A DNA stretch of 55,401 nt, from contig CAVVOP010000010.1 in assembly GCA_963749915.1 (NCBI GenBank), positions 1 through 55,401 of the forward strand, read 5' to 3'. Origin of the DNA: an uncultured cyanobacterium (GTDB taxonomy: Bacteria > Cyanobacteriota > Cyanobacteriia > Cyanobacteriales > Cyanobacteriaceae). Below the pieces are notes generated by a model. That model had not been told where the DNA came from. It did no database searches and saw only the letters and a list, made by a program, of their open reading frames with translations. Made by a program: the position numbers and the translations under genes. Below, piece by piece: positions 10,975-35,024 of this stretch (position 1 is the first letter of the stretch; each line of letters starts with the position of its first letter).

Positions 10975-11529
10975 CTGACTTTTCACGGTATCTTTTCCCT
11001 GAGAAAGGGTTTGGGTGTTAGGGGTTGGGTGATAGGGAAAATTCAGTTTTTGTTTTCGAGGGCACGAATCAATGCTGATAATAATCTTCCGAGGGATTCA
11101 CATCTATTTAAAAGAGAATCAATGACTTTCCCCTCTCCTAACTTTACCCTTTTCGACAATAAAAGATGAGTTTCTAATTCTTTAAGAGAGCCTTGTGCTA
11201 TGTATAAAAACTGTATATATTCTTTTCGGGTTTTTCGACCATGCCCCTCAGCGACATTGGCGGGAATAGAGGCTGATGCTCGACGAATCTGAGAAATTAA
11301 CCCGTAAAGTTCTTCTTTGGGGAAATTGCGAGTAACTAAGTAGCATTCTTCTGCTAAATCCATGCCTGTTTGCCAAACCTTTAAGTCTCTATAGGATTGT
11401 ATTCCCATCAGTTTCTAAGTGTTTTTTTTGACTGTTCAACTATTAAAGCTTATCCTCAATCCCTAATCCTAACACCCAACCCCTAACACCTAACACCTGT
11501 CAACCGAAAAAGATGCCGTGAAAAGTTAG
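10975..11529 (-). mobile_element. Non-autonomous TIR element carrying a four-helix-bundle gene
   Basis: TIRs CTGACTTTTCACGGTATCTTTT / AAAAGATGCCGTGAAAAGTTAG (20/22); perfect 10-bp TSD CTTAGCCGTT at 10965-10974 and 11530-11539. Confidence 0.92.
11043..11408 (-). CDS. Four-helix-bundle protein (23S rRNA IVP / Avd-like family)
   Basis: YRDLKVWQ, FPKEELYGLISQIRRA..SI.AN.AEG and L.IA.GSL.E.ET motifs. Confidence 0.92.
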   Translation of the reverse strand: MGIQSYRDLKVWQTGMDLAEECYLVTRNFPKEELYGLISQIRRASASIPANVAEGHGRKTRKEYIQFLYIAQGSLKELETHLLLSKRVKLGEGKVIDSLLNRCESLGRLLSALIRALENKN

Positions 11530-13811
11530 CTTAGCCGTTAACCTGGCTGATTTTATTATTAAAGATATAGGCAGAATAATAGATCGCCAAGTTATCCCCA
11601 CAGTACAAGTATGGCGAGAATCAGCTAATCCCGCTTCGGTTGTCATCGAAACCCCTGTTTACCGTCAAGAATACGGATTGTGGGAGCATCAAAAATACTT
11701 TGTCAAATTAGCCTTTGAAGCTCATCAAAAACCATCAGGAGCCAGATATTTATTAGCAGATCAAGTGGGATTAGGGAAAACTATGCAATTAGCCATGTCG
11801 GCAATGCTTATGGGTTTATATGGTAATCGTCCGATCTTAATTCTCGTACCCAAACCTCTGTTATGGCAATGGCAAGAGGAAATGAAAAACTTACTAGATA
11901 TGCCTTCAGCCGTTTGGGATGGGAAACGCTGGATTGATGAAAACGGCATTGAATACCCTACTCTTGGTGCTGGGGGAATTAAACAATGTCCTCGGCAAAT
12001 CGGGATCGTATCTCAAGGATTAGTTACTAGTCGCTCGGAAGCTTCCCAATATCTCTTAAAATTATCCTATGAATGTGTAATTGTCGATGAATCTCACCGT
12101 GCTAGACGTAAGAATATTAAACGAGATCAACCTCAAGATGTACCCGAACCGAATAATTTATTAGCTTTTTTGGAACAAATATCTCACCGTACTCATAGTT
12201 TACTACTCGCTACCGCCACTCCCGTACAAATTCACCCCATCGAAGCATGGGATTTATTGAGAATTTTAGATGGCGAGCGAGAATTTATCTTTGGTAAACC
12301 TTGGAGTCATTGGCGTTTCCCTAATTATTCTTTACCTGTGGTTATGGGACAAATAGAATTACCTGACGATGATTTAGAACGCTGGAATTGGATTCGTAAC
12401 CCTTTACCCCCTTCCAATTCAGATCGCTGTTTGCAAATGCTTCGCCGTAGTTTAAAACTAGATGATCATATTCCCGTCGCACCCCCAGAAGCATGGGAAC
12501 AATTACGCCCAGCTGATAAAAGACGAGTCAAAGATTTAGCCAAAACCTTTGGCACCCATCATAATCCTTTTATTCGTCATATTGTTCGCCGTACTAGAGA
12601 ATATCTAGAAACGACGATTAACCCTGAAAGTAATGAACCATTACTACAGCCAGTGAAAGTAGAATTATTAGGAGAAAAACCCGAAGAAGCTATCCGTTTA
12701 CCTCCTTACCTCCAAGACGCTTATGAGGTTGCCGAGGAATTTTGTCAGTTAATCAATTCTCGTTTGAAAACAGGTGGTTTTTTTAAGACATTTTTACTCA
12801 GAAGAGTGGGAAGTACCATTTATGCAGGAAGAATTTCGGCGGAGAAAATGCTTGAAGGTTATGACGAGACCGAACAAGACAACGGCACTCTTTTTACTGG
12901 GGAAGAAGATGAAGCAGAGGATGAGCAAAGACCAGAAAGAGGTTATACTCTGACTTTAGAAGAACAAGAATTACTCAGAGCTTTTATTGACAGACTCAAA
13001 GCTAATCAAGAGCGAGATCCCAAATATGCAATAGTCATAGACTTACTGTTAAAACAAAAATGGTTTCAACAGGGATGTATCATTTTTTCGCAATATTTTG
13101 ATTCCATTTGGTGGTTAGCTCAACAATTAACCGAAACTATACCCGATGAGTCGATCGGGATTTATGCTGGGGGAAATAAATCAGGGATAATGTTCAACGG
13201 GCAGTTTAATCGTTGTGAGCGAGAAACCCTAAAAACTCAGGTTCGCTTGGGAGAATTACGCTTAATTTTAGGTACCGATGCTGCTTCCGAAGGACTTAAT
13301 TTGCAGCGTTTGGGAACACTCATCAACTTAGACTTACCCTGGAATCCTACCCGTTTAGAACAACGTAAAGGACGTATTCAGCGTATTGGACAAATTAGAG
13401 AAACCGTTTTTATCTATAATATGCGTTACCAAGGTTCGGTAGAAGATAGAGTTCATGAGCTTCTCAGCGATCGTCTTGAATCGATTCATGCCATGTTTGG
13501 GCAAATTCCCGATGTTTTAGAAGACGTTTGGATTGACTTAGCCATGGGAGAAATTGAAAAAGCGAAAACTACTATTGATACTGTTCCTCAACAACATCCC
13601 TTTGAATTAAAGTACCACAACATTGAACGAGTTGAATGGGAATCTTGTAGCCAAGTACTAGATGCCGACTGTAAAAGAAAACATCTTTTAAAAGGATGGT
13701 AGTAAATCCAGGGGATAAATTGTTTTTCGTGCCAGTGGGAAAGAATTACTTTGGATAAGGACACTTTGAATAAGTAATTCACTCAAAAAATACAGTCAAA
13801 TATATCTGACG

Positions 13812-13860
13812 TATGATTTGGCGGAAATAGAAGGTTCGTGCAACGAGGGGCAAGTGACAA
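13812..13860 (+). repeat. 49-bp repeat, inverted copy at 24401-24449
   Basis: TATGATTTGGCGGAAATAGAAGGTTCGTGCAACGAGGGGCAAGTGACAA; 45/49 identical to the reverse complement of 24401-24449. Confidence 0.85.
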
Positions 13861-13937
13861 CTTGTATTCCGTAAATTACCTCTTTTTCCGGCTCGATTGA
13901 TAAGAAAAACAAATAATAACTTTTACTTGTTGATATC

Positions 13938-14208
13938 TTACGCTGCGAATGGTTGCGTTAATCTCGAAATCCTCTCATTCATATCCAACTTAAACAGACC
14001 ATAAGGATTGACATGACTAAAAATAAGAGGCGTAATTGCTCGCAAATCAGTAGCCGTCAGCTTTTTCTCCCAATGCTTTTGAGCTAGCACACTCTGAATC
14101 ATCAAAGTATTTATATACACTAAACAAATTTGTAATAAATGCAAAGACAATACCGATAACTCCTGAGTTTCCAAACGATTCGAGGCAAACTCCCCACCCT
14201 TACCATAG
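13938..14208 (-). pseudogene. Tn3 transposase C-terminal remnant
   Basis: [15 protein letters not shown]...TPL.F.HVNPYG.F motif. Confidence 0.85.
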
Positions 14209-14472
14209 AACCCACATTCCGCATCCGCACGTCAATTTGCACTATGTCATGTAATACCTTAACGCCTTGTTTACAAAATATTCTCCAAGTAATAAAACAA
14301 CGAAATTGAGATTAAACAAATATAAATACTGTAAAAATCTGTATATGGCGATGCCAAAGGCACAGCGAAGCTGCCCGCAAAAAACAATAAATATATGTAT
14401 TACCTATAGTAAAGTTGCGTAAAAGTCATTAAAATATGATTGTTTTCTAAAAGAACATGCGGAATGTGGGTT
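14209..14472. mobile_element. MITE-like element with a 16-bp perfect TIR
   Basis: AACCCACATTCCGCAT (14209-14224) and ATGCGGAATGTGGGTT (14457-14472); non-coding interior; no TSD seen. Confidence 0.65.
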
Positions 14473-14524
14473 ATATATTTCAAGAAATCTAATTTTCAAG
14501 TCCAGTCATAGTAAGTATTTCAGC

Positions 14525-14562
14525 CTTAGCGCACGTTTTCGTACGGTTACTACCGATCGCCC
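14525..14562 (-). repeat. 38-bp Tn3-type terminal inverted repeat
   Basis: Reverse complement GGGCGATCGGTAGTAACCGTACGAAAACGTGCGCTAAG ends in the Tn3-like CGCTAAG. Confidence 0.8.
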
Positions 14563-14744
14563 GAATAGCTTTCCACACTCGATATTGTAGAAGGAAAAGG
14601 TTTTTCTGGAGTTGCTTCCAAAGACCAAATAAAGTATCAGGTATTGGTTAAAGTGAATTCTTCGACATATTTAAACCTTTATTCGCTCGTTAATAAATAA
14701 CCAATCCCCCATCCTACAATCCAAAATCCCAAATCTAATATCTG

Positions 14745-16487
14745 TTAATTGATTCGTTGCTTCAATAATTGCACGATCGCTTCCTCCCCATGCTTATTAA
14801 CATACTGCTGTAACAGATTCAGAGTAGTAACAGATAGATTTAAAGGTTTAAGAGTAGGTGCAGTATCTTCTAAATCAAGCAATTTAGTAGGATTATCAGG
14901 ATGAGTTTTTAAGATCCCCTTTTCTACCAAGAATCGGGAAAAAGCACCATTGAGAGTAGGAGTACTCAATCTCTTCTGATATATTTGTAATCCTTTATAG
15001 ACTTCTTCCTCAACCTCAACATACCATTTACAACCTTGTCCTGCTTTATAGTTAAGCCCTTCTTTTATCAGAATTTCTTTCTTCTGAGGTTTTTGTGGTT
15101 TAGATAATGATGGTAAATCTAAATCTTGGAGTCGGATTAACTCTCGTTGGTCATTATCAAAAGCAACCACAAGAGAATGAGGAGAGGGAATCTGGGTAAC
15201 AACTCCTTCCAGTCCACCAAAATAATGATTATCTTTTACTTTGACTCGATCGCCCACTGATAAGGGATTAGTTATTTTCTGTTTTCCTTTACTGGGTTTG
15301 ACGTTGGTAGAATCTATTAATTCAGCATCAGTATTATCATTATCTATTTCCGCCGGTGCATCATCAAGATAGTTATTTTGCTGAAAATCTGTAACTTCTA
15401 TATCTTCCTTAAGTTGTTCAGAAATTATCTGATTATCTTCTGCTGGTGTTAATGATTCTGATGACTTACTTTGACCGATATTTCCGACCCTCATCTTCGC
15501 CTCTATACCATCCTTGGTAATATAAGTTCTTATAACTTCTTTGTTACTTTCCTGATTACCACTGATAATATTATCAGTGAGATTACTATTGTTACTTTCC
15601 TGATTACCACTGATAACGTTATCAGTGAGATTGCTATTGTTAGCGAAAGTATTACGAGCAAGGTTAAAAATATCCTGACGAAGTTTAGAAACAAAAGGCT
15701 GACTAGTCGATGTTTTTCTAGCAATTTCTCGATCGCTCCATTGACTCCATTCTTCATCATTAAGGAGAGTAAAAACAGCTTTTCTTTTGTCCTCATTACT
15801 ACGGCGTAAACCATGAATAGAATTGACACCCAGAGAAAACAATAAAGCTTCTCGGTAAGTACCAGATTTCTCGATAAAGGGTAATTCAGTTATTCCAGCT
15901 TGTTTCGCCGCTTCTACTCGGTGAAAGCCATCAACCAAGTAATAACGGGGAGTGGGCAGTAGAATTTGACTGTGTTCAGTAACCAGAGAGTCGGCAGTGG
16001 AGGTTAATTCAGAATTATGAGAATCAAATAATTGATTATTTTCACTACTCCCTACTTGCTCCCCACTCCCTACTTGCTCCCCACTCCCTACTTGCTCCCC
16101 ACTCCCTTCCTCTCTCCAGACGGTTATAGGAGGAAGTTCGACACCTTCAGAATAAGCATTTTGATAATCATCCACCACAGAATCATTAATCTCTACCCTC
16201 TGCTGTAGGTTGACATCAATGGTAAGTAAAGTTAGCTTAATCTTTCCTGATACTTCCCGAATGCTATCTGAGATCGCCATAGGTTTATTAACCTTCTGAA
16301 GATTGTTAGCCAGTTCGGGGGTAGGAAGATTAGAACTATCCCAATTAACCCAAAACTGCAACATCTTGCCGTTATTAACGTGAATGTCAGTTACTTTGCC
16401 GACATTCCCCCTCGCAAATACCCAATCACCGATTTTGACATTATGGGGATTGAGAGAAAAGTCAGGATAATGTTTAGATTTAAGCAT
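14745..16487 (-). CDS. ParB/Srx-domain HTH protein with a KOW-like C-terminal region
   Basis: LPPITV...YLVDGFHRVEAA, N..HGLRRS..DKRKA and WSDREIAR...S..FV motifs. Confidence 0.8.
   Translation of the reverse strand: MLKSKHYPDFSLNPHNVKIGDWVFARGNVGKVTDIHVNNGKMLQFWVNWDSSNLPTPELANNLQKVNKPMAISDSIREVSGKIKLTLLTIDVNLQQRVEINDSVVDDYQNAYSEGVELPPITVWREEGSGEQVGSGEQVGSGEQVGSSENNQLFDSHNSELTSTADSLVTEHSQILLPTPRYYLVDGFHRVEAAKQAGITELPFIEKSGTYREALLFSLGVNSIHGLRRSNEDKRKAVFTLLNDEEWSQWSDREIARKTSTSQPFVSKLRQDIFNLARNTFANNSNLTDNVISGNQESNNSNLTDNIISGNQESNKEVIRTYITKDGIEAKMRVGNIGQSKSSESLTPAEDNQIISEQLKEDIEVTDFQQNNYLDDAPAEIDNDNTDAELIDSTNVKPSKGKQKITNPLSVGDRVKVKDNHYFGGLEGVVTQIPSPHSLVVAFDNDQRELIRLQDLDLPSLSKPQKPQKKEILIKEGLNYKAGQGCKWYVEVEEEVYKGLQIYQKRLSTPTLNGAFSRFLVEKGILKTHPDNPTKLLDLEDTAPTLKPLNLSVTTLNLLQQYVNKHGEEAIVQLLKQRIN
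15560..15627. promoter_or_regulatory. Two perfect 20-bp palindromes inside the parB-like gene (candidate parS)
   Basis: CACTGATAATATTATCAGTG (15560-15579) and CACTGATAACGTTATCAGTG (15608-15627), within a 48-bp duplication just after the HTH codons. Confidence 0.55.
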
Positions 16488-17937
16488 AGTGTGTTTGACC
16501 TCCTCCCATAGTTTTTAGCCATTGAGCTAAACGATTTTTGAAATTCTCATTAACGGGTATTTCTTCGGCAGATTCCTTGGTATAGGTTTTATACTTTTTC
16601 CCCTCAGCATCAGCAACAGTGGAATTATGAGTTATGAATGATGAATTATGAATTACCTCGTTTTCCTTTTCGTCATTTACTGGCTTTTGATCATTTATTG
16701 ATTGGCTATAAATATTTACGTTGGAGGGAACGGGCAACGGGGAACTGGGAACGGTGTTTTCACTACTCCCTACTCCCTGCTCCCCACTGCCTACTTGCTC
16801 ACTATTCCCTATTCCCTCTTCCCTGTTCCCTTCTTTTACTTGGGGTAATTGACGAATAATGATTTCTTCAATACTGCCTACTTCCTGTTCCCTGTTCCCT
16901 TGAAAAGATACTGATTGTTCTGAATCTAATGGTTTAAGGGCAGAAAGTCGCTCGATCGTCTCCTGTTGTTCTTCTGGGGAAATGGTACAACCATGATCGA
17001 GGCGATCTTTAATGTTCTGAAGTTTAGCGAAATACTCTTCTTGATACTGTTCCCAACGAATAGGCAGTTTAGCAGGATCATTACGGAAATAAGCCAGTAC
17101 ATTCGCCTTAGACTCATAAATATCACAATCTTGATACTTAACCATCCATTTCTTCGCTAACCACTCCTGAAAGGCTGGATCTAATTTGCCGTTAACATTC
17201 CAGGCACCATCTAGCAACCACTGCCAAATCGAATTGCGAGTTCTGGATGATGAATAATGAATATCCTCTTGTTTATTGCTTGTTTTCTGTTCCCTGACAA
17301 CAATACTACTAGCCGAGACATTTTTCTCGACCTTGAAGTTTTGGGGATTAGCTAGTATTTCTGTATTAGATTCTTGGTTAAAAGAACTAATATACTGTTC
17401 TACTTGATTATTTTCTTCTTCTTCTGAAATACTCCAATAATCTGTGTGTGTGTCACAGTCTGGATACGTATGAATAGTTTTATTAGTTTGAATAGTCTGA
17501 GAGAGATTGGAATCTAGTTTTGGCAATGGTTCTGGGCTTTGGTTTTCGCAATTTTGAGAATCTATTCTCATTTTTGAGAGTGGTTTCTCATTTTTGAGAA
17601 TAGTTTCGCAATTTTGAGAATGGCCTCTCATTTTTGCGAATCCTAAGATATTCTTAAATCTCCAACCCTTGTCCTCAGCGTTGATTAATTCGGCTTCCTT
17701 CAGTTTAGACATTGCTCGATAAAAGCTGGCTTGACTTATGGCCAAAAGTTGGCAAATATTCTCAATGTCAGGCAGCTCGCACCAGCGATCCCCAAAGGGA
17801 TCAATTAAACTCAGGAAACTGTAAACCTTCCAATCATTCCCTGATAACTTGGAATTCCATATTTTGAAGATCGCCTCTTTAGATAGTTGGAAGAAAGACT
17901 TAAATGTCTCTTGTTCGATGCTTAATGTCGTCATCAT
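16480..17937 (-). CDS. Putative replication initiator (N-terminal wHTH) with intragenic iterons
   Basis: wHTH ICQLLAISQASFYRAMSKLKEAELI, then a repeat-encoded segment; overlaps the start of the parB-like gene. Confidence 0.6.
   Translation of the reverse strand: MMTTLSIEQETFKSFFQLSKEAIFKIWNSKLSGNDWKVYSFLSLIDPFGDRWCELPDIENICQLLAISQASFYRAMSKLKEAELINAEDKGWRFKNILGFAKMRGHSQNCETILKNEKPLSKMRIDSQNCENQSPEPLPKLDSNLSQTIQTNKTIHTYPDCDTHTDYWSISEEEENNQVEQYISSFNQESNTEILANPQNFKVEKNVSASSIVVREQKTSNKQEDIHYSSSRTRNSIWQWLLDGAWNVNGKLDPAFQEWLAKKWMVKYQDCDIYESKANVLAYFRNDPAKLPIRWEQYQEEYFAKLQNIKDRLDHGCTISPEEQQETIERLSALKPLDSEQSVSFQGNREQEVGSIEEIIIRQLPQVKEGNREEGIGNSEQVGSGEQGVGSSENTVPSSPLPVPSNVNIYSQSINDQKPVNDEKENEVIHNSSFITHNSTVADAEGKKYKTYTKESAEEIPVNENFKNRLAQWLKTMGGGQTHYA
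17541..17640. repeat. Five 20-bp palindromic iteron-like units
   Basis: Core TC(T/G)CA-N4-TG(A/C)GA repeated at an exact 20-bp period. Confidence 0.85.
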
Positions 17938-18086
17938 TACACCTCACCCTGAGCTAAAATTTTGTCAGTCACCAATTTGTTCGTGATTCTTTGAGGATGT
18001 GTTATTTGTATTGTCATAATATTACTTAATAAGATAGTTGACCGAAAGCAAGACCCCATCCCCTGACGAAACGGGGCTTTTTGGGG

Positions 18087-18575
18087 TTAAACTTTTTGGG
18101 TTTGTTGGTTTCCAAAACGGTGTAACCACTCCTGTCTAGTGATTTCACCATTAGCGAATGGTGGGACTTTTGGGAAAGTGGGGGGAGGCTGGGGATTTGA
18201 TTTGTGCTCCTTCTTCCAGAGGATTCTGCCGAGACCGTACTTTGAACAGCATCTTCTCAGGCATTGAGCTTCGACGTTCGTGGCCGGAGTGCCATAGGCA
18301 TCGAGGTCCACATCTTCATCTCCACTGGCTTGACGGGAGATGGAGCGGTCTTCACCGATAATGGTTAATTCCCAAACTTGGGTTAAGCGATTACCGATCT
18401 GTTGTTGATCAACCATCCGCCAACTCCAGCCATCGATGCCCGCACGTGCGTCCAGTAAATCGGCTAAATTTACCCAAGAAATATACTCAATGCGATTGCC
18501 CTTGATCATCTTGTAGCTGATTAGTTTCGGGGGAACAGGCTGCTGCAGACGTTCCAGTATTTCAGTTAGTTTCAT
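18087..18575 (-). CDS. Rad52/Rad22-like single-strand annealing protein
   Basis: IEYISW...LD.....WSW...LTI...SRQASG...NVEAQCLRRCCSKYGLGR.LW pattern. Confidence 0.75.
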   Translation of the reverse strand: MKLTEILERLQQPVPPKLISYKMIKGNRIEYISWVNLADLLDARAGIDGWSWRMVDQQQIGNRLTQVWELTIIGEDRSISRQASGDEDVDLDAYGTPATNVEAQCLRRCCSKYGLGRILWKKEHKSNPQPPPTFPKVPPFANGEITRQEWLHRFGNQQTQKV

Positions 18576-18954
18576 TTTTCTTCTCCTTACTGTAAAAAGA
18601 GAAAGGCAGGATGATTTTCTGTACCGTTGCCCCAGTTAAAAACTTCTCCGGCTAACGCCCCGCAGATGACGACACTCTCACAAAGTTGAGAGGTTTGGTA
18701 TGATGGATAGTCAGAATAATTTAAAATTGTCATTGTAGATCCTCCGGATTTACATAGCGGCGTGTGGTAGGGGTTCAATCTAGTCACACGTCGTAATTGT
18801 ATTTTGCTGAACCTTTGGTTAACTTCTAAGGCTTGAGGTTGGTTCTTTCCTTTTCCTTGTTTCCATTTTACAATTGATAAAAGGAAATGTCAAGAATGTT
18901 TGATCGATTTTTTTTGGGTATAATGGGAACAGGCATATAGACAAAAATTTTTAA

Positions 18955-19197
18955 ATGTACGATAAGATGATGAGCAAGAAAAAATATACAAGAGGTGAAC
19001 ATCCGCATAGTAAGGCAAATCTGTCTTTTAGCGAAGGTCGTCCCTGTCTATATTCTGAGCCCAAAAAAAATAGGACTGTATGTTTGACACAGCGAGGATG
19101 GGATGAGCTAAAGTTACTGGCGAGAAATTTGGGCTATTCTAGTGTTTCTGATTTCATGGAAAAAGTGGCAAGAGGGCAGATCAAAATATCGGCTTAA
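18955..19197 (+). CDS. Small putative DNA-binding protein, divergent from the rad52-rep-parB operon
   Basis: GRP...EPKK.RTVCLT..GWD.L...A..LG.SSVSDFMEKVARG (RHH-like). Confidence 0.5.
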   Translation: MYDKMMSKKKYTRGEHPHSKANLSFSEGRPCLYSEPKKNRTVCLTQRGWDELKLLARNLGYSSVSDFMEKVARGQIKISA

Positions 19198-19663
19198 CAT
19201 AGTTCTTATTGGCAAAAAGCAAGAACGTAGGGATGGACATATCGGGGTTCTTTGTACAACACCACAGATTAAGAAAAACTCTCAAAATAGTACTCCGGAA
19301 GAGTTTTGGCTCTTAAATGACCATATTATCGGTTTTTTGGGTGCGACTATCCAGTACTAGTCAACAGACAACTCCCTACCAACTAATTAAGCACCAAAAA
19401 CGGCAATTTTCCGACTGCTCTCAGCCATTTCCTTAAGCTAAAACGCATTTCCGTTACAACTTCAGATTCAAGATAGCAAGGGTTTCACAGTTTTAAACCG
19501 CAGATTAAATGCTGCTTAGCTTAATAATAATCGCCCTTGCTTGTTTTCTTTCCTTTCCATCTGGGCAGTTCAATCTGCCCCTTCACTTGTCTAAAAAATT
19601 CTTTGACAATCATAAATTAGTTAATTTGGAAGAAAGAAACTACTTTCAATCAAGAAAAAAATA

Positions 19664-19891
19664 ATGCAGATAACCAAAACAGAACTTAAAACTCAATTAG
19701 AGGAACTACTAGAGCGATTAGATGTGGAGAATGAAGACATCATTATTGTGGATGGAGGTAAGCCCGTATTTAAGCTCTCTAAATATGAGGCATCACCTAG
19801 CACAGAAGAATTATTTGCTCCCCTCAGAGGTAAGGTTAAATACTATGAAGACTTAACCACTCCTACGACGGAAGAGTGGAGTGAGCTATGA
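19664..19891 (+). CDS. Phd/YefM antitoxin
   Basis: ELK..L..LLE......IIIVDGGKPVFKL; overlaps the PIN toxin gene. Confidence 0.85.
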   Translation: MQITKTELKTQLEELLERLDVENEDIIIVDGGKPVFKLSKYEASPSTEELFAPLRGKVKYYEDLTTPTTEEWSEL

Positions 19892-20280
19892 AAATAGTTT
19901 TAGATACTTGTGCTTTGATTTGGTGGAGTTTAGATCCAGATTACCTTTCAGCTTCAGCTAAGCATCTTTGTGCCACCATGGAAGAACAAAAAAATGGTTT
20001 AGTCGCTTCCATTTCCTTATGGGAAATTGCACTCAAGGTAAAAAAAGGTAAATTAGATTTGGGAACAGATATAGAGAGATATATATCTACTCTATTTCGT
20101 TCGGATGTCATTCAAATTATTTCCATTGATGTCAGTTTGTGGGTCGATAGTGTTAATTTAGATTGGGAGCATAAAGATCCTGTAGATCGAGTGGTGGTAG
20201 CTCTGGCAGCTCAGTATCAGGCTCAGTTAATAACTAAAGATACTGCTATCAGAGATTTTTATTCTCTGACTATCTGGTAA
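19888..20280 (+). CDS. vapC: VapC/PIN toxin
   Basis: VLDTCALIW, SISLWEIA and HKDPVDR motifs. Confidence 0.9.
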   Translation: MKIVLDTCALIWWSLDPDYLSASAKHLCATMEEQKNGLVASISLWEIALKVKKGKLDLGTDIERYISTLFRSDVIQIISIDVSLWVDSVNLDWEHKDPVDRVVVALAAQYQAQLITKDTAIRDFYSLTIW

Positions 20281-20467
20281 AAAAATTCCTCAGAATTCGA
20301 GCGGTGCAACCGCCTAGGGTCGGAAACAGTAGGCAAAAAGTCATCACCGAAGACAAAAAGAGACTGTCCTCTTGGGGAGGGAGAGATTATGTCTTGATTA
20401 TAGGTTATCCTCAAGGAAGGAACACAACAAAAGGAGACTATCGTTGTAAAACCCTGTCCTTATCGCC

Positions 20468-21322: not shown

Positions 21323-21355
21323 GGGCAATCGATTATAGCAACAGACTCAATGAAG

Positions 21356-21456
21356 TCTGGTTCCCAGACCGATAAATCGAACTATGCCAAAACCCATCAA
21401 AATAGCAATAATGATTGGCATAATGACCACATACTGGGTATGCTGAGGATCTTGCC
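21356..21456 (-). pseudogene. Fragment of a paralogue of the 39411-40112 gene
   Basis: Minus strand reads QDPQHTQYVVIMPIIIAILMGFGIVRFIGLGT. Confidence 0.75.
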
Positions 21457-25164: not shown

Positions 25165-25349
25165 CTTGCTTCTCCAGATTATAAGTAATTACTTATAATC
25201 TTAACCTATTTCAGTAAGCGAGCGATCGCTATTCAAGTAACAATATATTTTCTATTAAACCTTAATCTAGGTCAAAGCTCGCCTTCTAGCCTTCTCGTCT
25301 TCCGCTTCGCATATTCCGGTTCGTTACAAGTAATAAATAGTTTTTGCCA

Positions 25350-25420
25350 AGTATTTTACTTAGTATTTTACTTAGTATTTTACTTAGTATTTTACTTAGT
25401 ATTTTACTTAGTATTTTACT
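25350..25420. repeat. 12-bp tandem repeat (AGTATTTTACTT) x6
   Basis: Directly visible; each unit is a quasi-palindrome, AGTA-N3-TACT. Confidence 0.92.
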
Positions 25421-25445
25421 AGGGCTATTTAAAGCCCCATATAGT

Positions 25446-28382
25446 TTATCTAATTGATAGATAAGTTGATTTTTCTCCTAGTTCTGCATACTTTAAGGCT
25501 TCTGCATCACCATTAATTACTGCTTCTTTAAGTGCCTTTTTATCTACTTCTATTGTTACCTTCTGGTATTGTTGAGGATAGCTTTTAGCATCTTCTCTGA
25601 GTAAATGTAAGGGAGCTATACTAGCTTTTCTGATGGATACATTAAACTTATTTGTTCTGAACTTAGTTTTACCTATTTTCTCTAAATGTTGTTTAAGATA
25701 TTCTTGTAACCAGTCAATAGTTTTCTCATCCTTTTTAATTAATTTGTTCAGTCTTTCTGCCTCTGCTTTTCTCATTTCCAACCATCTTTTTCTCGACTGT
25801 ATTAAGCATAAAATTGAATCAATTTTATCAATAAATTTATCATTTGTTTCTTCTGCTTCTGCTAATAATTTTAAGTATTCCAAGATTAAAGTAGGAGTAG
25901 CTGTCACCAGCTAAACCTCTCTTCAGAACGGTACGTGAGACTTTCACCGTCATACAGCTCCTCTCAAATATGTCCTTTGTCATAGGTACAAATCAACTGC
26001 CTTTGGTACTTCCATCACTTGCAGTTTTTGTGTCATGACAATGTCGATGTAGATACTTGTAGATTATTATATTCATCTTTGCCCCCTAATGATTTGGGGA
26101 TAACATGGTCGATTTCTACTAAGTCACCATCCTTTAAATATAGTCCACAGTGATTACATTTACCCTTCTGTCTCTTGAGTAATGTTGCCATTCTCGTTGA
26201 TAATTCTGGGTGCTTTCCTAACCTTGCTGACCAGTACAACATATCTCCATCGAAAAGGCTTTTATTCCCTTTGACTTTGACGTGTCTTACAATGGGTGTG
26301 TCTGAGTGTCTAAGAAGTTTTGTGCTATCTGTACTAAAACACCAATTTCTCATTATGACCTTTGAGTAATCGGTGTGCCAGTATTTCTGAGCTACCCAAG
26401 AGTTTGATTTCTTAGGATGTCTTCTTTCAGCCCATCTTTTTAATTGTTGATATAAAATATTGTCACAATAGTTGTATGTTTCTTTGCTACAGACAGTGCT
26501 GTAATAATTACTCCATCCTCTGATGATTGGATTTAATTTGGAAATTAAAGCCTCTTGAGATACACTTCTGTGACTTCTTATAATATCGCCAATCTTTTTG
26601 ATGTGGGCTTTTACTTTACTTTTTGAGGGTTTTATGATAGTTTTAAATCCAAGTTGATTTCCGTGTGCGGATTTTCCACTTTGATATTTCCCAACGGGAT
26701 ATTGTCTGATGTTAAATCCTAGGAAGTCAAAGTCAAATTCTAAATTTCCTTCATGCTCATTGAGTGTATGGGAAATTTTGGTTTTGCTCGGTTTTAATTC
26801 TAGCCCTACTTCTTTTAACCAGTTTTCAATAATTAATTTACATTGTAGGATTATTTCTAAGTCTTTGTGCAGGATAACAAAATCGTCTGCATATCTTATA
26901 AGACTGAGGTTATCCTCATTCTCTTTTTTCCTACCTTTGAGAGTTCTGGCAAATTTCTTGACTTCTAATTCCATACCGTGTAAGGCTATATTTGCCAGCA
27001 ACGGAGATATAACTCCTCCTTGTGGCGTGCCTTTGTCAGTAGTAATTAGGTCTTTGTTTTCCATTACTCCACTCTTTAGCCAAGCCTTGACCTGTCTGTT
27101 TAGTTGGGGGTAAGAATTGAGTTTTGTAAGTAGTTTATTGTGATTGATATTGTCAAAACATCCTGCTATGTCCGCATCAAGTACATATTTAGGTACATAT
27201 CTGATTGCGTTAAATATAGCTCCAATGGCATCGTGACATGACCTTGCTGGTCTAAATCCGTAGGAATTGTCCTCGAAAGTTGATTCCCATTCCGGTTCTA
27301 ATCCTAGTTTGACGAGGGCTTGTAAGGCTCTATCTTTTATGGTAGGTATTCCTAGACCTCGCTTCTCATCATTTGCTTTTGGTATGAAAACTCGGCGTAA
27401 TGGCTTTGCTTTTCTACCTATGCTTAGGTTATTAACAAGTTCAAGTCTTTGATTGGGTGTGAGTGACTTTTTACCATCAACCCCTGCCGTTTTCTTGCCT
27501 TGATTATCTTGGGTCACACGTCTGGTTGCCCAGAGTTTTCCATAATAGGATTTGGTTAGTAATCGCTGTAAACTGTGAACCAATTTGACATCGCCACTTT
27601 GACTTGCTCTGAATATTCTTGTTTGTAACTTAAACGTTGCAATCTCTACGATTTTCCAATCGATTTGATTCCAAGCGTTCCATTTATACTTTACGTTCAT
27701 AACATTTGAATTACTACTAAAAACTATTCAATACATATCTAAGTGTGTACGTCAGCATATCCTTTTCATTACAAAAAGGCATTGGCTTTTTACACAATCT
27801 CTCCTCTTTGGGGCTTACGCTGGTTACTACTTGAGGTTTTCGACCTCCTCAAGAGCCGTTCTGAGGTTATTTCGTTCCTGTCTTCCGTATTTTCTGACTT
27901 TAGATTCTTACTCTCCACCGAGCTCTATATTGATGTTCCCAGTTCAAATCTACAAATTTGCTGGTATGTTAGAGTGTTGCCTTTTGGCTATAGCTTATCA
28001 GCCTTATTTAGCTATTTCTGCTTCACGATGGTTATAACGTAAGTTCCTTGCGTAATCATAATCAGAATTGCTAGATGTGTACCACTTTAGGCTAGTAGTA
28101 GGAACACCATTTAACCCTGCGTTAGCCTATGAGTTACCACCTCAATTGACTAAGGGTTATGCTGTCAACCCAACATCTGGGCGGATGGTTTTGCACCACC
28201 ACGAAAAACAAGTTGTCAAGGTACATATCTGTAAACCTTGCCTAGCTTACGTTTCAGTCAAGGGACTTAGACTTTGGCTAGAACGAATCGCACTGTACAT
28301 CAGCAGGTATATCTACACCCTCCAGATTCTCTATAGTGTCCTCTAATTCCTGTAATTTACTGGTTAATTCATATAGTTTCAT
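25446..28382 (-). CDS. Siphovirus Gp157-family protein, two exons (28382-28294 and 25884-25446)
   Basis: Splicing gives MKLYELTSKLQELEDTIENLEGVDIPADVH-LEYLKLL...KAEAERL...DKKALKEA...YLSIR, 175 aa in frame, with an AGGAG RBS upstream. Confidence 0.82.
25885..28293 (-). mobile_element. Group II intron
   Basis: 5' GTGCGATTCGTT at 28293; domain V GAGCTGTATGACGGTGAAAGTCTCACGTACCGTTC at 25960-25926; domain VI ends ...TTTAAT at 25885. Confidence 0.92.
26033..27700 (-). CDS. ltrA: Group II intron RT/maturase; the HNH tail is frameshifted
   Basis: TAGVDG, PQGGVISPLLANI, YADD, GWSNYY and C..CG...DHVIPK motifs. LHRHCHD lies in another frame at about 26055. Confidence 0.94.
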   Translation of the reverse strand: MNVKYKWNAWNQIDWKIVEIATFKLQTRIFRASQSGDVKLVHSLQRLLTKSYYGKLWATRRVTQDNQGKKTAGVDGKKSLTPNQRLELVNNLSIGRKAKPLRRVFIPKANDEKRGLGIPTIKDRALQALVKLGLEPEWESTFEDNSYGFRPARSCHDAIGAIFNAIRYVPKYVLDADIAGCFDNINHNKLLTKLNSYPQLNRQVKAWLKSGVMENKDLITTDKGTPQGGVISPLLANIALHGMELEVKKFARTLKGRKKENEDNLSLIRYADDFVILHKDLEIILQCKLIIENWLKEVGLELKPSKTKISHTLNEHEGNLEFDFDFLGFNIRQYPVGKYQSGKSAHGNQLGFKTIIKPSKSKVKAHIKKIGDIIRSHRSVSQEALISKLNPIIRGWSNYYSTVCSKETYNYCDNILYQQLKRWAERRHPKKSNSWVAQKYWHTDYSKVIMRNWCFSTDSTKLLRHSDTPIVRHVKVKGNKSLFDGDMLYWSARLGKHPELSTRMATLLKRQKGKCNHCGLYLKDGDLVEIDHVIPKSLGGKDEYNNLQVSTSTLS

Positions 28383-28413
28383 GGTTTTTCTCCTTAATTT
28401 AATGATAATGATG

Positions 28414-28888
28414 GGGAGTGGGGAGTAGGGAGTGGGGAGTAGTGTTAGAGTTTTTCTTTAAGTTTGTTGGTAAGACTAATCAACATTCTGGTAATGCTTA
28501 ATAATTCTTGGTTAATCTCTCTGATAGATTCAACCGTTAAGTAACCAATTCTCTGAGCAATAATTAATTGAGTCTCCAATTCATTACAGCTTCCCTGAGC
28601 TATGTTTAAGAATCTGATATATTCAGCTGTGCTTCTGCGTCCGTAACCTTCAGCTATATTACTACTGATACTTACAGAGCATCGGCGTATCTGACTGGTT
28701 AAACCATAGATTTCTTCTTTGGGAAATGATTTAGTTAATCTGTAACATTGTTCAGCAACATCAATTCCTTTTTGCCAGACTATTAAATCTTTGTAATTAG
28801 TTATTTCATTCATTTTATTTTCTCCTAGAAAGAATAACGGTACGGTAATGGGTTTATCACTACTCCCTACTCCCTACTCCCTACTCCC
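28414..28888. repeat. Inverted (GGGAGTA)n arrays enclosing a four-helix-bundle gene
   Basis: 28414-28444 is the near-perfect reverse complement of 28858-28888. Confidence 0.88.
28445..28813 (-). CDS. Four-helix-bundle protein
   Basis: YKDLIVWQK, FPKEEIYGLTSQIRR, SNIAEGYGR and IAQGSCNELETQ motifs. Confidence 0.92.
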   Translation of the reverse strand: MNEITNYKDLIVWQKGIDVAEQCYRLTKSFPKEEIYGLTSQIRRCSVSISSNIAEGYGRRSTAEYIRFLNIAQGSCNELETQLIIAQRIGYLTVESIREINQELLSITRMLISLTNKLKEKL

Positions 28889-29231
28889 TATTTACCTCCT
28901 TTTTTATTGCTTTTAACTTCTACTTTAGACTTAGGAGATTCTACTTGATTAGCATAGACAAATAGCTTACTTTTTTTCTCTCCTTCTTCTGTTTCCCATG
29001 AATTTTGTTCAATTTTTCCTGATACTATTACATAACTTCCTGAGTGCAAATAATTATTAACAAACATTGCTTGATTTCCCCAACATTCTACAGGTATCCA
29101 TGAGGTTTTTTCCTCTCCTTTTATCACTGTATTTACCGCTATACTGAAAAGCTAACTTTTGTTGAGTTCTCATAAACATTCATGGTAGGTTCTGCACCTA
29201 TATAACCAGCTATTGTTACTGTATTTATCAT
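28888..29231 (-). pseudogene. ssb: Single-stranded DNA-binding protein (frameshift at about 29150)
   Basis: MINTVTIAGYIGAEP, then shifted-frame FSIAVN...TSWIPVECWG.QA......GS.V.VSGKI....W. Confidence 0.85.
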
Positions 29232-29425
29232 TACTATTGTTTCCTTTTTTCTAGTTGTTATACATAACTTTAGGTTTCTATCAAGGCTTTTCTCTCTCTC
29301 TTGATTTCCTTTTCGTTATTTCCCTATTATATCCAATATTTCTAATAATAACAAGGATTTTATCATTAATTACTATATAATAGCATGTTATAATAAAGAA
29401 AAAATATAAAAAGAAGAAGGTATTT

Positions 29426-29938
29426 ATGCAGAATAAATCAGAGATTCAGGTAATAAATGAAGGAAGAGTAAATGTCCCCCTAAAGTTTAATTTACTGGAA
29501 GATGAAGACATCGAACAAGCTAGGATTGTTTTCTCGACAATGCGTACTTATATTAAACGTTATTTAGTAGAAAAAATAGATTATGGTACTATCCCTTATT
29601 GTGGGAATAAAGAGGTTTTATTTAAAGCTGGTGCAGAAAAGCTCCTTCGTCTTTTTCGTTTACGTCCTACATTTGATTTAATTGATAAAATCGTAGATTA
29701 TGAGCAAAATTTATTTCATTATCATTATCGTTGTTCTCTTTATCGTTTTGGGGAATTGGTAGGGCAATGTGACGGATTAGCTAACAGTAAAGAAAAGAAA
29801 TTTATTAAACAGATTAATAATAAAGATTATAGTGTTATTAATACTTTATGTAAGATGTCACAAAAAAGATCTATGGTTGGTGCTGTACTCATTGTTTGTG
29901 GTGCGTCTGAGTACTTCAGTCAAGATTTAGAGGATTAG
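29426..29938 (+). CDS. Phage/plasmid protein, possible single-strand annealing protein
   Basis: DYGTIP..G.K.VLFKAGAEKL...G.ANS.E...NT..KM.QKR..VGAVL.....SE.FSQDLED motif; divergent from ssb. Function is inferred. Confidence 0.5.
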   Translation: MQNKSEIQVINEGRVNVPLKFNLLEDEDIEQARIVFSTMRTYIKRYLVEKIDYGTIPYCGNKEVLFKAGAEKLLRLFRLRPTFDLIDKIVDYEQNLFHYHYRCSLYRFGELVGQCDGLANSKEKKFIKQINNKDYSVINTLCKMSQKRSMVGAVLIVCGASEYFSQDLED

Positions 29939-29951
29939 TTCCGATTATAAT

Positions 29952-29974
29952 AAAAGGGGTTAATCCCCCTTTTT
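29952..29974. terminator. Probable bidirectional intrinsic terminator
   Basis: AAAAGGGGTTAATCCCCCTTTT just after the 29938 stop. Confidence 0.55.
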
Positions 29975-30092
29975 ACAAAAAACTAGAAAAAAGGTTAGCT
30001 TTTATGCTTTTCTTTTTATATTTTTATGATACCATTCTCGACTGCTATTCCTTGTCTTTTGTTATAATTTATATATTATTAATAGTATTATT

Positions 30093-30464
30093 ATGAGTAT
30101 CCGTAAATCTAGTAAAATTTTTCCTGATCAATATAAAGAACGGGCGATCGCTAATGGGATTTCGATTCAAACAGTTTATGCTCGATTACAGAGAGGATGG
30201 GATTTAGAGAAAGCGGTAACAAAAAAACCGGTAACAAATACTTATGCTCATAAGGCACATCGGGAGGATGGATGGATGACAGCCTCAGAACGTCCCCGTT
30301 TAAAACAATGTTTTTCTACCAGTATTTATCAAGATTTAGAACCTATATTTAATAAAGCTCTGGAAGAAAGTGGATTATCAAGAAGTGAATTTATAGCAAA
30401 TGCAATTGAACAATATTTATTAAAATTATGGACTCCAAAGAAAAATCTCAGCAAAATAAAATAA
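30093..30464 (+). CDS. Hypothetical DNA-binding protein (HTH + RHH-like)
   Basis: A..NGIS..TVYARL.RGW..EKA; GLSRSEFIANAIEQYL. Confidence 0.55.
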   Translation: MSIRKSSKIFPDQYKERAIANGISIQTVYARLQRGWDLEKAVTKKPVTNTYAHKAHREDGWMTASERPRLKQCFSTSIYQDLEPIFNKALEESGLSRSEFIANAIEQYLLKLWTPKKNLSKIK

Positions 30465-30768
30465 TTACAGTGGATTTCTCGAATAGGGAAACAGGGAATG
30501 TAGAGATTTACACAGAACAACCTAAGATTATTAATCACCCAATAATTAGAGAAAGACGGAAAAGATTAGGATTAAAGCTAAAAATTAATAAACAATGGTT
30601 TTAGGTTTGGGCGAAAAGCCCTTTTTTTCTGACTCTTATCTAGGAAAGGTGTTAGGATTTATGGTTTTTGTTTACCGTCATTAAAAACCGCTTCGCTAAG
30701 GACTTTTCCATAGAACTAGGCATACAAGGGAACAGGGAACGGGCAACGGTTTCCATTCCCTATTCCTT

Positions 30769-31329
30769 TTACATTCCTCGATGGGCTTCGTAACTAGCCA
30801 CTTCTCGATCTAATCGTTCGTATTCTTCGATGTAATCAAATTCACCATTAATTAAATGGTAATAGTCTTGTTGTTCCTGATGTTCCTGATATTGACGGTT
30901 AATTTTTTCTTCTTCGGTGAACTCTAGGTATTCCTCAAAGCTATTGAATCCTAGATAAGATAAAAGGGCATAACCGTGTTTGCATAAGGCTTTCTCCCCT
31001 TCAAAGACTATCCATTGATTGCCATAATCTGGACAGGTGCAATCAATAAAGCAATCATTAGGGGTTAAGGTGTATTCCGTTCCTTTGATGGTGTTTTTAG
31101 CAGTGTAGGTATTATCTTGATTATCGATAATCTCAATGTCACTGCTACGGGCTGCACGATCGCTTCCCATCAATTTTTTAACTTCTTCTGCCGTTACCTT
31201 AATTTGTTCTCCTGTTTTTAGGGTAACTGTGCAATATTTGTTACTGCTAACCTTGATCATCTTTATATCTTTGCGATCAATCCATGCAACCTTTTCTATG
31301 TTGCTGAAATTAAATAATATATGTGACAT
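30769..31329 (-). CDS. SWIM zinc-finger protein
   Basis: CTCPD...LCKH motif. Confidence 0.75.
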   Translation of the reverse strand: MSHILFNFSNIEKVAWIDRKDIKMIKVSSNKYCTVTLKTGEQIKVTAEEVKKLMGSDRAARSSDIEIIDNQDNTYTAKNTIKGTEYTLTPNDCFIDCTCPDYGNQWIVFEGEKALCKHGYALLSYLGFNSFEEYLEFTEEEKINRQYQEHQEQQDYYHLINGEFDYIEEYERLDREVASYEAHRGM

Positions 31330-31729
31330 GACGCTATCCTTTTTCTAGTTTATACACTTATTATAGCACATATTCCCAATAATTAATTATAAAATCTCAC
31401 TAATTATTAGGAATATTTGTTATAATAGATATAACAAAACTAGAAAAAAGGAAAAAAATGTTTTACTTAACTTCTTAAAGACAATGAGGAAAATTTAGAC
31501 AGTTGTTTTATCAGATTTGGAACACGCTTTAGTTATCCTTGATGAGGTTTCGGATAAGTTTCGTTCCACTCCTTCAGAATTAGCACGAATTGAAGGGGAT
31601 TTATTACGATTAATCGAATCTATTGATTGTGAGATTCAAGATAATGAATTTCAAGGTCTGGGTAACGTCGCTTAATTTATTCGGGGGGGCTTCGGCTCTC
31701 CTTTTTTCCCCTGATTCACCATCGAGATT

Positions 31730-31957
31730 ATGAAACTAAGAGATTTTTTAAGAAATAATCCAGATCTACAATTTGCTTATTTTCCCCATTCCCGCCAAAA
31801 AGAGTTTAATCAAAAGATATTAATTCGTTTTGACAATAAAGATAAGACAAACAGAGACAAAGAACTTTCAACACTTCTAAGGAATTTAAAACTTCCGTAT
31901 TATATTCGTTCTTTAAATTCTTGTTTCTTCTTTGTAATTTTGCCTAACTTTTATTAA
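31730..31957 (+). CDS. Hypothetical protein
   Basis: 75-aa ATG-started ORF with AT-rich codon usage; no recognised motif. Confidence 0.4.
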   Translation: MKLRDFLRNNPDLQFAYFPHSRQKEFNQKILIRFDNKDKTNRDKELSTLLRNLKLPYYIRSLNSCFFFVILPNFY

Positions 31958-32446
31958 AAACCTACGGGGCGTAGTTGCCCCCAACAGCCACCACTGGCTA
32001 TGACCAAAACAAAACTAGGGGGCGAGGAGTGAAGCGTGGGGAGGAAGTGGAGCGAGTGGAGCGACTGACGAAGGAGGGAGACGGAACGAACGCAACGCAG
32101 CGAGACGGCGAAACGACGAAGCACTCCCCCACCGCACGAATGGTAAACAATAATGGGTGGGAGAAAATAACAAATGGAGCGGTAACTAAGCACGTGAACG
32201 ATGATTCCTTATCAGAAAACCAGCGACACAACAGGGTGGGCTATTTTAGAGCCTAGGTAAGAATTATGAAACAAAATAATTACTATTCTCATCAAAAAAC
32301 CATCCTTTACCTTCTGGGTCTTTTGATTTCGTCCATTCTATATATTCTTCTTTCGTTATCTTATTATCTCTAAATTTCTTTTTATATTGATTTATTGCAC
32401 CTCTGGAGACATTAAATCTTTTAGCTAATTCTGTTGTACTTTAATT

Positions 32447-32785
32447 CTATTGCTCAAGGTTATCTGTAAGATTGCTTTCTAATTCTATATTTTCAGATGA
32501 TTTTTTCTGTTTCTTTTCAGGTATGCTACTTGATAGTTTACTAAGTGTATTAACTAATTCTTTTAATTCTTGTACTTCTTTTTTAAGCTGTTCAAATTCA
32601 ACTAAAGTAACACCACCAATCCAAGTTTTTTTAATAAGTAAAGTTTCTTCAAGCCCAAAATATTCAGCAATAATCACGTTTAATGCTCTTGAGCAACTAA
32701 GATTATTTTCCTGACAAAATTGGTCAAAGCGATCGTAAAGTTCAGGAATTATATATCCTGCTACCCTTTCATTTTCAGTAGTCAT
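32447..32785 (-). CDS. RHH/CopG-like protein with a coiled coil
   Basis: RVAGYI.PELY..F..FC....LS.S.AL..IIAEYFG pattern. Confidence 0.6.
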   Translation of the reverse strand: MTTENERVAGYIIPELYDRFDQFCQENNLSCSRALNVIIAEYFGLEETLLIKKTWIGGVTLVEFEQLKKEVQELKELVNTLSKLSSSIPEKKQKKSSENIELESNLTDNLEQ

Positions 32786-32888
32786 AATCAGTAATATACT
32801 TGGTATGCTAAAAATATATCATAATATCAGTGAGATAAAAGAGAAGATAGAGAGTAGGATAGGGATTCCTTGTAAAGTAAATTATTTA

Positions 32889-33420
32889 TTATTTCTTCTC
32901 CATTCCCAAGGCTTTTACTAGATTCTTGCTGTAAATATTGAGCCGATTATTTTTAGCGATCGCTTCAGCTTTTTCAATATCATTCCAAATAGGACAATCA
33001 GACTTATATTGAGGATAAGGATAAACCCAACCATTCTTAACCTGCTTAACTTGAACAGCTTCACCATTAAGAAGATATAAAACAGCTACACTTCTACCAT
33101 ATCTATCAGTATTAGTAATATCGAGATTAACTTTATTTCCATTTGATTGTAAAAGCGATCTCAAATAATCACGAGATTCAATGCCATATTCTTGGTCTTT
33201 TTCTGGAGCTATCGATACAGGCAAATCTTATTTTTAATTCTTCATTATCACTAGATATTACACGAAGTGTGTCACCATCATAAATGCTTCCTTCTTTTAT
33301 TTGATATACTTGTTGTTGTCACTTTTTGTATTACTAATTGCTTGATTATTATTATTTTGAAAGTAAACCCAGAGAAGGAATAAGCCTATAATTAAAGGTA
33401 ATTTATTGAATCCATTTCAT
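32889..33420 (-). pseudogene. Thermonuclease (SNase-like), frameshifted
   Basis: YDGDTLRV, KIRFACID/APE and DRYGR motifs spread over shifted frames. Confidence 0.78.
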
Positions 33421-33449
33421 AATTTTTAATTTGGAAGAATAATAATATC

Positions 33450-34533
33450 ATGATGGCGATAACCCATGCTGTAATTAGTAGTTCAGTAACATCATTAGTT
33501 TTGGGAAAAACGGATACATTAACATTAGGATTATCGATTATTGGAAGTCAATTACCAGATCTTGATTCTAGTAAATCAATTATTGGTCAAATATTTTTTC
33601 CCATCTCCCGTTACTTAGAAAATCACTTTCCTCATCGCTCAATTACTCACTCATTCATAGCTACAGCTATCATTACTGCGATTGCCTTCCTCATGGGATA
33701 TTATTACTTTAATGATATTTATAAGTTAATTGCGTTACCAGTAGGTCACTTAGTGAGCTGTTTTTCTGATACCTTTACCAAACAAGGGGTACAGTTATTT
33801 TATCCTAATCCAGTATGGGCAATATCAGTAAGTAACCCACATCGTAGGTTACGAACTGGCTCACCTTCGGAATATTATGTTTTAGTTAGCTTTCTCAATA
33901 TTGCTATTCCTCAACTTTTCTCTCATTAATAATACTGGGGGAATAACCAATGCTATTTCTATCAATTTAGGTTTAAGAGATGAGATAGTTAAAATGTATA
34001 ATCAGGATGCCAATACTCATTTATTTAAAGCGTCTATTAAAGGTTATCACCAGAGCGATCGCACTCCTATTAATGATGAGTTTATGGTAATCAATAATAT
34101 AGATAAAGAGTTTATTGTTACTGATGGTGAAAGGATATATAAGACTGGTGAAAATATAATAGTAGAAAATATAGAGTTAATTAAAGATAAGAAGATTATC
34201 AATAAAATTGAATCGATTACTCTTGATGATGAAGATATTAATAGTAAACTAAATAAGTATGCTACTAAGTCTGATACTAGGTACGATACTAGTGGGATAC
34301 TGAAAATAATACTGAGTTTGATACTCAAGTACGATACTATTTATATCACTGGGAGCATAGTAGTGGACTACCCAGAAGATATTGAGTTACCAAGTTTCAT
34401 TAATGAGTATGAATATATAAAAATGACTGGTGCTACGATTAATTTAGATTATTGTCCGTTGGAGAAGGCGATCGACATCTTAGAAAATCAATTTGGAACT
34501 GGAAAGGTAAGAATTATGAGTTATGAATTATGA
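33450..34533 (+). pseudogene. YdjM-like metal-dependent hydrolase with a C-terminal extension (frameshift at about 33900)
   Basis: ITHA, GSQLPDLD, HRSITHS and D.FTKQGV motifs; two overlapping ORFs. Confidence 0.75.
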
Positions 34534-35024
34534 ATTATGAATGATTAAGAGGTAATTAATTTTGGCAAAATAGTAACAATAATAATTAGAAGATTAGGGG
34601 TAAAATGAATGAGAAAAATATAGTAGAAAGAACTTTTAAATTTAGTGTAAGAATAGTTAAATTATGTGATTATTTAGCAAAGAATGGAGGTTCTGGTTAT
34701 CAATTAAGTAAACAATTGATACGTTCAGGTACAAGTATCGGAGCGAATGTATGTGAGGCACAGTCAGCCGAAAGCAAAGCCGACTTTATTCATAAAATGA
34801 GCATTGCCCAGCAAGAAGCGAGAGAAACAAACTATTGGTTAAAATTACTAATCGCAACACAAGAAAATATAGAACAAAGACTATTACCACTTTTGAATGA
34901 ATCTAATGAATTAACAGCAATTATTACTAAAATAATAGTCTCTACAAAAAAGAATAATTAATAACTCTTACTTTCATAACTCATAATTCATAATTCATAA
35001 TTCACAACTCCTAATTCATCATTC
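34511..35024. repeat. Inverted (GAATTAT)n / (ATAATTC)n arrays enclosing a four-helix-bundle gene
   Basis: 34511-34560 versus 34957-35024, including inner TAAGAG/CTCTTA pairing. Confidence 0.85.
34605..34961 (+). CDS. Four-helix-bundle protein
   Basis: KQLIRSGTSIGANV.EAQ.AESKADFIHK..IA..EARET.YWL motif. Confidence 0.92.
   Translation: MNEKNIVERTFKFSVRIVKLCDYLAKNGGSGYQLSKQLIRSGTSIGANVCEAQSAESKADFIHKMSIAQQEARETNYWLKLLIATQENIEQRLLPLLNESNELTAIITKIIVSTKKNN

Follow-up and report, generated by a model that had tools for sequence, protein, structure and literature searches.

Why should three small genes of one protein family, scattered through the same piece of bacterial DNA, each lie between two tandem arrays of a seven-base repeat that read as reverse complements of one another? 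The window, by which we mean the whole stretch analysed, is contig CAVVOP010000010.1 (55,401 nt) from an uncultured cyanobacterium. An earlier note had described its genes A, B and C as four-helix-bundle genes enclosed by inverted heptamer arrays, and this was confirmed for all three; each scored above the PF05635 and TIGR02436 cut-offs in a profile search. We call a gene together with its two arms a cassette, and give all arm positions on the plus strand. Gene A (121 aa; 11043–11408, minus strand; PF05635 E 1e-38, TIGR02436 126 bits) lies between a G-rich arm of degenerate GGTGTTA type (11007–11037) and a C-rich arm of TAACACC type (11457–11498), and is antisense to a gene that it interrupts. 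Gene B (122 aa; 28445–28813, minus strand; PF05635 E 9e-43) lies between a G-rich arm (28412–28442) that mixes two unit variants and a C-rich arm (28860–28890), whose first bases on the gene strand are the stop codon of ssb, the gene upstream. Gene C (118 aa; 34605–34961, plus strand; PF05635 E 7e-22) is preceded by a G-containing arm of GAATTAT type (34511–34542), which contains the stop codon of the open reading frame (ORF) 33901–34533, and followed by the complementary arm of ATAATTC type (34974–35024). Genes B and C are sense to their neighbours, and C has a second copy on contig C15. The G-rich arm of cassette A is degenerate, so that the cassette failed our strict test for an array pair although its stem score is 64. 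Minimum-free-energy folds pair the arms in all three predicted structures, and the inner complementary bases named in the earlier note (AGTG/CACT, TAAGAG/CTCTTA) are present and lengthen the stems.

The enclosure of the three genes is real and far above chance. Only 7 of 1,381 ORFs of 90–200 aa in the same genome have an inverted pair around them, and three of the seven are genes A, B and C. Ordinary ORFs of this size are thus almost never flanked in this way (4/1,378), and over all 4,120 ORFs inverted pairs (11) are no commoner than direct ones (13).

The architecture recurs widely, which bears out the idea that gene and inverted arms form a module. PF05635 matches occur in 71 of 151 genomes of the phylum. 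We examined 120 loci (115 with a hit, 92 intact) and kept the 81 that were less than 90% identical and had flanks; like our other sets of relatives, these are the best hidden Markov model (HMM) or BLAST hits rather than random samples, and kin among them are not independent. A strict inverted pair surrounds 56 of the 81 (37 with 7-mers, 16 with 8-mers, 3 with 9-mers), and 71 have a stem score of at least 30; direct pairs were seen in five. When arm partners were swapped, 3% of pairings reached that stem score, and 1 of 52 neighbouring ORFs had an inverted pair. From species genomes we took 80 relatives of protein A, dropped nine that were broken or short-flanked, and found a strict pair in 26 and a stem in 44 of the 71 scored. 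The corresponding counts at the 59 non-cyanobacterial loci among these were 20 and 36.

Two regularities of placement accompany the arms. The G-rich arm comes first in 53 of the 56 inverted pairs from the phylum and in all 26 from the species-genome relatives of A. The polarity seen in the window is therefore non-random, but it is unrelated to gene direction: whichever strand is read, the G-arm of an inverted pair comes first, so that the order is a feature of the pair itself. The cassette also tends to lie in sense with the genes around it: it is sense on both sides at 22/27 and 38/61 loci with enough flank, compared with 604/1,376 small ORFs of the window's own genome, and at 17/21 and 15/18 loci no more than 25 nt separate the start of its 5′ arm from the upstream stop codon. 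Cassettes with different 8-mers occupy the rimP–nusA junction in five genomes; others lie upstream of groEL, between two sugar-epimerase genes, or behind ssb.

The unit of the repeat goes with the protein. On a quick tree, used only to view clades, members of a clade have unit and period in common. Constraint on the unit was gauged in 17 disjoint pairs of relatives at 60–85% aa identity. Their four-fold sites were 0.447 identical (0.321 expected), so that synonymous sites are near saturation; their units nevertheless matched at 5.82 of 7 positions, against 3.86±0.22 in a neutral simulation (maximum 4.71 in 5,000) and 3.87 for random partners. A common scaffold underlies the 37 distinct units (4.52, versus 3.91±0.14 when shuffled). 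At a single site both arms may change together, as between cassette B here and its counterpart in genome G159, or among the rimP–nusA cassettes with their different 8-mers. As repeat and protein are conserved together, recognition of the repeat by its own protein is likely. We also considered the arms as a source of stop codons in all frames, and rejected this as too weak: 45 of 75 units contain a stop, versus 38.9 shuffled, and 19 in the other arm.

What the protein might do with its repeat is suggested by its fold. A model of protein B (pLDDT 96.8) matches Xcc0516 (2GSC) with a TM score of 0.89 and an rmsd of 0.9, and Avd (4DWL) with a TM score of 0.78 at 13% identity. Together with the profile matches this supports the earlier assignment to the family of 23S rRNA intervening sequences (IVSs), Avd-like in fold. 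The HMMs for Avd itself stayed below cut-off (PF22296, best 33 against 40 bits; NF033474, 24 against 80 bits), and no context of a diversity-generating retroelement (DGR) was seen; the reverse transcriptase (RT) near cassette B has group II intron domains. The structures 2GSC and 2RLD contain five chains each, and Avd is described, in the accessible part of 10.1101/2023.10.23.563531, as holding flipped-out RNA bases between its five protomers. Unit conservation, the shared scaffold, the fold, the RNA of Avd and the length of the arms together suggest that the protein may bind its own arms as a ring. The median arm is 4.4 units long, near the subunit number of a pentamer, hence the idea of one unit per subunit.

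How do cassettes reach new sites? The earlier note bounded cassette A by its heptamers and saw in the heptamer stem itself a dispersing module. The first does not hold, and the second was not supported in that form: the outer limit of cassette A is a 22-bp terminal inverted repeat with a 10-bp target-site duplication, and the only copies shown to move lie in insertion sequence (IS)-ended mini-transposons. Element A, a 555-bp non-autonomous mini-transposon (10975–11529), is almost certainly an IS4-ended cassette. Its left terminal repeat (10975–10996, plus strand) shares its first 14 bases with an end of an IS4-family element on contig C20, and its right one (11508–11529) is on the minus strand; the sequence of the duplications (10965–10974 and 11530–11539, plus strand) is present once at the empty junction of genome G154. 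Protein A is encoded 12 times in the genome, and these copies have sharp ends in common, which lie beyond the heptamers and correspond to 10975 and 11529. Of the 12, ten are identical, one has a single difference and one measures 558 bp. They lie at unrelated sites, empty sites exist, no transposase is found inside, and target duplications of 9–10 bp flank 8 of the 12. Element A with a 10-bp duplication was also found in the metagenome-assembled genome CAVRWR01 (L128).

In the window the element divides an anti-phage gene of PLD-helicase type (10426–13702, plus strand), which matches positions 1–182 of model NF042964 on the left and 229–895 on the right. Removal of the element and one duplication restores a frame of 904 codons with no internal stop, and the gene is uninterrupted in G154 and G168. 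A contig of DNA run X5 omits 565 bases, equal to element A plus one duplication, though at 85% likeness it may derive from a related organism; contig depth over element A in the DNA runs was greater, in a form not usable as copy number. Element A shows one real way in which cassettes spread and has, in this place, recently knocked out an anti-phage gene.

The IS4-family element whose ends match those of element A (G000:C20:161811-163312) encodes a transposase that was found by NCBIfam (NF033590, 335 bits) and by PDB (Tn5, E 1e-36) and missed by Pfam. Another IS4 ORF, on C19, is 29% identical, and no element-A-like ends were seen in its flanks; a related IS was found in 1 of 60 relatives. The next relatives of protein A (79–86% aa; Moorena, Rivularia, Hormoscilla, Pleurocapsa) are flanked by arms, and ends of the element A type were not seen in their flanks of 150–170 nt. 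This argues that capture by the IS came later than the cassette. Two further IS-end families carry cassettes in the same genome. The C27 family also occurs in G164, where 8 of the 9 loci examined have it at one end or at both, most with broken genes; the C8/C9 family has a 10-bp duplication at C9.

Several details of these elements were noted in passing. Most copies of the second family of MITEs (miniature inverted-repeat transposable elements) in G164 (L049–L057) have their four-helix gene broken, and further inserts rich in repeats are nested inside. At G000:C21:151383-152903 a four-helix gene in a CAATACTGC-ended element is interrupted by ∼1 kb of other DNA. Gene-less MITEs of 125–189 bp with the IS4-type ends of element A occur at G000:C21:57850-58015, C25:47738-47903, C8:789405-789593 and C8:260338-260462, one of the four with a 10-bp duplication. 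The element A copies at G000:C19:102035 and C25:21731 have the same left flank, with a matching right duplication only at C25, which suggests later rearrangement through element A. The split PLD-helicase gene closes a defence and mobile island (98–13702) that also holds a Tn3 transposase, DUF3780, a Panacea antitoxin, PIN, an IS200-like transposase and DUF1156; a solo TTCATAA array (6348–6399) adjoins the start of the DUF1156 gene.

Cassette-less alleles exist for B and C as well as A. Cassette B is absent from paralogous sites on C12, C13 and C15 and from the corresponding site in G151; the G159 site carries it, with both arms switched to another unit. The C15 copy of cassette C includes flanking genes, and the C9 allele is gene-less, with the left array kept and different right arrays. 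For neither B nor C did alignments with cassette-less alleles or genome motif scans find terminal repeats or target duplications outside the arms; relatives yielded no orthologous junction for C. Near cassette C, the YdjM-like gene at 33450–34533 is two ORFs here and a single ORF of 352–358 aa on C9 and C15, a frameshift or an assembly error. A group II intron with an RT/maturase/HNH ORF (25885–27700) lies 0.75 kb from cassette B.

The arms have many counterparts without a gene. The genome contains 500 period-7 arrays, against at most 63 of any other period. When 575 arrays, cassette arms included, were scored with a motif derived from the arms of other genomes, they reached 3.72, versus 2.77±0.07, and close pairs of arrays were G-first by 28:3 (59 close pairs). 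These results fit the proposal that cassettes seeded the solo arrays, but only 1 of the 59 close pairs has complementary units and 61 of the 575 arrays are found immediately within IS-type ends. A shared origin of solo arrays and cassette arms is plausible, direction left aside. Of 181 IS-type ends, 67 have an array within 80 nt on their inner side and 5 on their outer side; copies of element A account for 12 of the 67. We rejected solo close pairs as gene-less cassettes, the single pair above being the only one with units complementary within one mismatch. Within the window, heptamer arrays at 16622–16900, 49083–49184 and 50065–50188 lie inside long ORFs (16480–17937, 48772–49596 and 49556–50848). 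They are mostly pairs with a G-rich array first and a C-rich one second, with non-matching units and in-frame read-through, and similar ones occur on C1, C9, C13 and C15.

We favour, with about even confidence, a reading in which the cassette is an IVS-like passenger of operons whose Avd-like protein probably binds its own arms, and which moves by hitch-hiking. A cassette would likely be transcribed by read-through from a host promoter. Its inverted arrays would then fold into a long stem with the gene looped out, as in 23S rRNA IVSs, and the stem might be excised by an RNase III-type activity. Proteins A, B and C would form pentamers and probably bind their own repeat arms, with RNA the preferred form by analogy with Avd. 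Copy A has spread as cargo of the IS4-ended mini-transposon, an IS4 transposase presumably acting in trans. We think it rather unlikely, though worth stating, that the principle is general, every PF05635 protein being a ring that reads its own 7–9-base repeat, in a widespread mobile module whose shed arms are a main source of short tandemly repeated repetitive (STRR) sequences. If true, the arms shed by this protein-plus-repeat module, spread further by mini-transposons, would account for many of the unexplained bacterial heptamer repeats.

A number of observations weigh against the favoured reading. The strict test was failed by 25 of the 81 phylum relatives, and 10 have no good stem. Units do drift: L093 and L100 match at 3 of 7 positions at 73% aa identity, and C-type cassettes use four unit variants. 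Re-templating between arms, rather than binding, could conserve units. A strand test of G-U against A-C mismatches gave 167 versus 133 (30:22 by loci, p=0.33), no sense-strand wobble excess, and with it no evidence of selection on an RNA stem. Copy A lies antisense inside a gene, where loop-out does not spare the host. A matching duplication is absent at 4 of the 12 copies of element A. The C20 element, the only IS in the genome with matching ends, is frameshifted near its N-terminus and without a duplication.

Some of these points also serve other explanations. The protein may bind its arms as double-stranded or extruded DNA, in operator-like autoregulation or to draw the two ends together, and the RNA stem would then be incidental. 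We consider this unlikely. The strand symmetry of architecture and polarity, the missing G-U excess and the unit constraint are all consistent with it, as are the arrays on the inner side of 67 of 181 IS-type ends (5 on the outer), which resemble subterminal binding sites. However, Avd binds RNA and is the only relative whose ligand is known, and the excess of sense cassettes behind stop codons speaks for transcripts, though it may merely reflect the need for a host promoter.

Movement might instead be the cassette's own doing, if the protein recruited a host RT or recombinase to the looped-out RNA or single-stranded DNA, inserted at gene ends and seeded the solo arrays. That Avd is an RT accessory speaks for such a role, and so do the unrelated junctions, the cassette-less alleles of B and C, the fit of solo arrays to the arm motif and the group II intron RT close to B. 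Yet no cassette without IS ends displays a clean junction, a duplication or a recent multi-site burst; the duplicates of B and C include flanking genes, all bursts seen are IS-ended, and close solo pairs are rarely complementary (1/59). We judge self-mobilisation quite improbable. We give just as little credence to a passive origin, with arrays made by slippage, complementarity by template switching, and the gene a passenger that does not read them. Period-7 arrays are indeed very common in this genome (500 against at most 63), gene-less G-first pairs occur here and, by the accessible text of PMC4692102, in Xanthomonas, and there is no RNA-strand signal. Against it, ordinary genes of this array-rich genome are almost never enclosed (4/1,378; neighbours 1/52), enclosure extends to other phyla, and units are conserved past synonymous saturation.

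The favoured reading would matter in that a very common family of unknown function would have each protein's candidate ligand written beside its gene; the window alone supplies three protein/repeat pairs for comparing cognate with non-cognate binding. It would also link the origin of ORF-bearing rRNA IVSs, the bacterial excess of 7-base repeats and the ancestry of Avd. Our literature search, with most subscription journals and supplements outside it, found neither two-sided heptamer arms around this family nor the family as MITE cargo; its nearest match was the one-sided heptamers of Coxiella, taken from part of the source. In the parts of the sources at hand, a PF05635-family gene is reported inside cas loci, with a resemblance to Avd (PMC3936711, PMC10053308).

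Each of the known systems shares part of the design. Element A is like IS4-ended MITEs in its terminal inverted repeats, its 9–10-bp duplication, its lack of a transposase, its one passenger gene and its many copies; it differs in that its cargo is a whole heptamer-armed cassette and in that three IS-end families carry cassettes in one genome. We take it to be akin to the mobile insertion cassettes on IS4-family ends, such as MIC231. The 9–10 bp of its duplications are within the IS4 range given in Table 1 of PMC2266710. Avd of DGRs (PDB 4DWL, 8UB7) has the same fold, and is pentameric and RNA-binding in its own system, but proteins A, B and C fall below the bAvd/Avd cut-offs and were seen in no DGR context, and repeat arms are not reported for Avd in the accessible portions of its literature. 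STRR, or bacterial heptameric simple repeats, are described in the available text of PMC4692102 and PMC4679880 as 7-base arrays, mostly intergenic and sometimes in convergent pairs; the former calls the excess of such repeats little studied. As far as that text goes, no link to four-helix-bundle genes is made and the origin is left open, whereas the cassettes here enclose such genes.

The closest likeness is to ORF-bearing 23S rRNA IVSs, with which the cassettes share the S23p/PF05635 family, a gene in the loop of a long stem, and sense orientation to the host transcript. The ORF lies within the terminal stem in the predicted folds of A, B and C. In Coxiella burnetii, according to the accessible part of PMC4990558, tandem heptamers lie in the 5′ arm of the RNase III-cut stem and the IVS protein is probably not expressed. 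Those heptamers are on the 5′ side only and in one species, whereas our cassettes are two-sided. The cassettes further differ from 23S rRNA IVSs in lying at mRNA gene junctions or in mini-transposons, and in having arrays for both arms, with units specific to each cassette. An Rfam scan of the window found only a piece of a group II intron and no rRNA, and the neighbours of the cassettes are protein genes. The module with heptamer arms varies the design of ORF-bearing IVSs: it is IVS-like, but outside rRNA, and hence no IVS.

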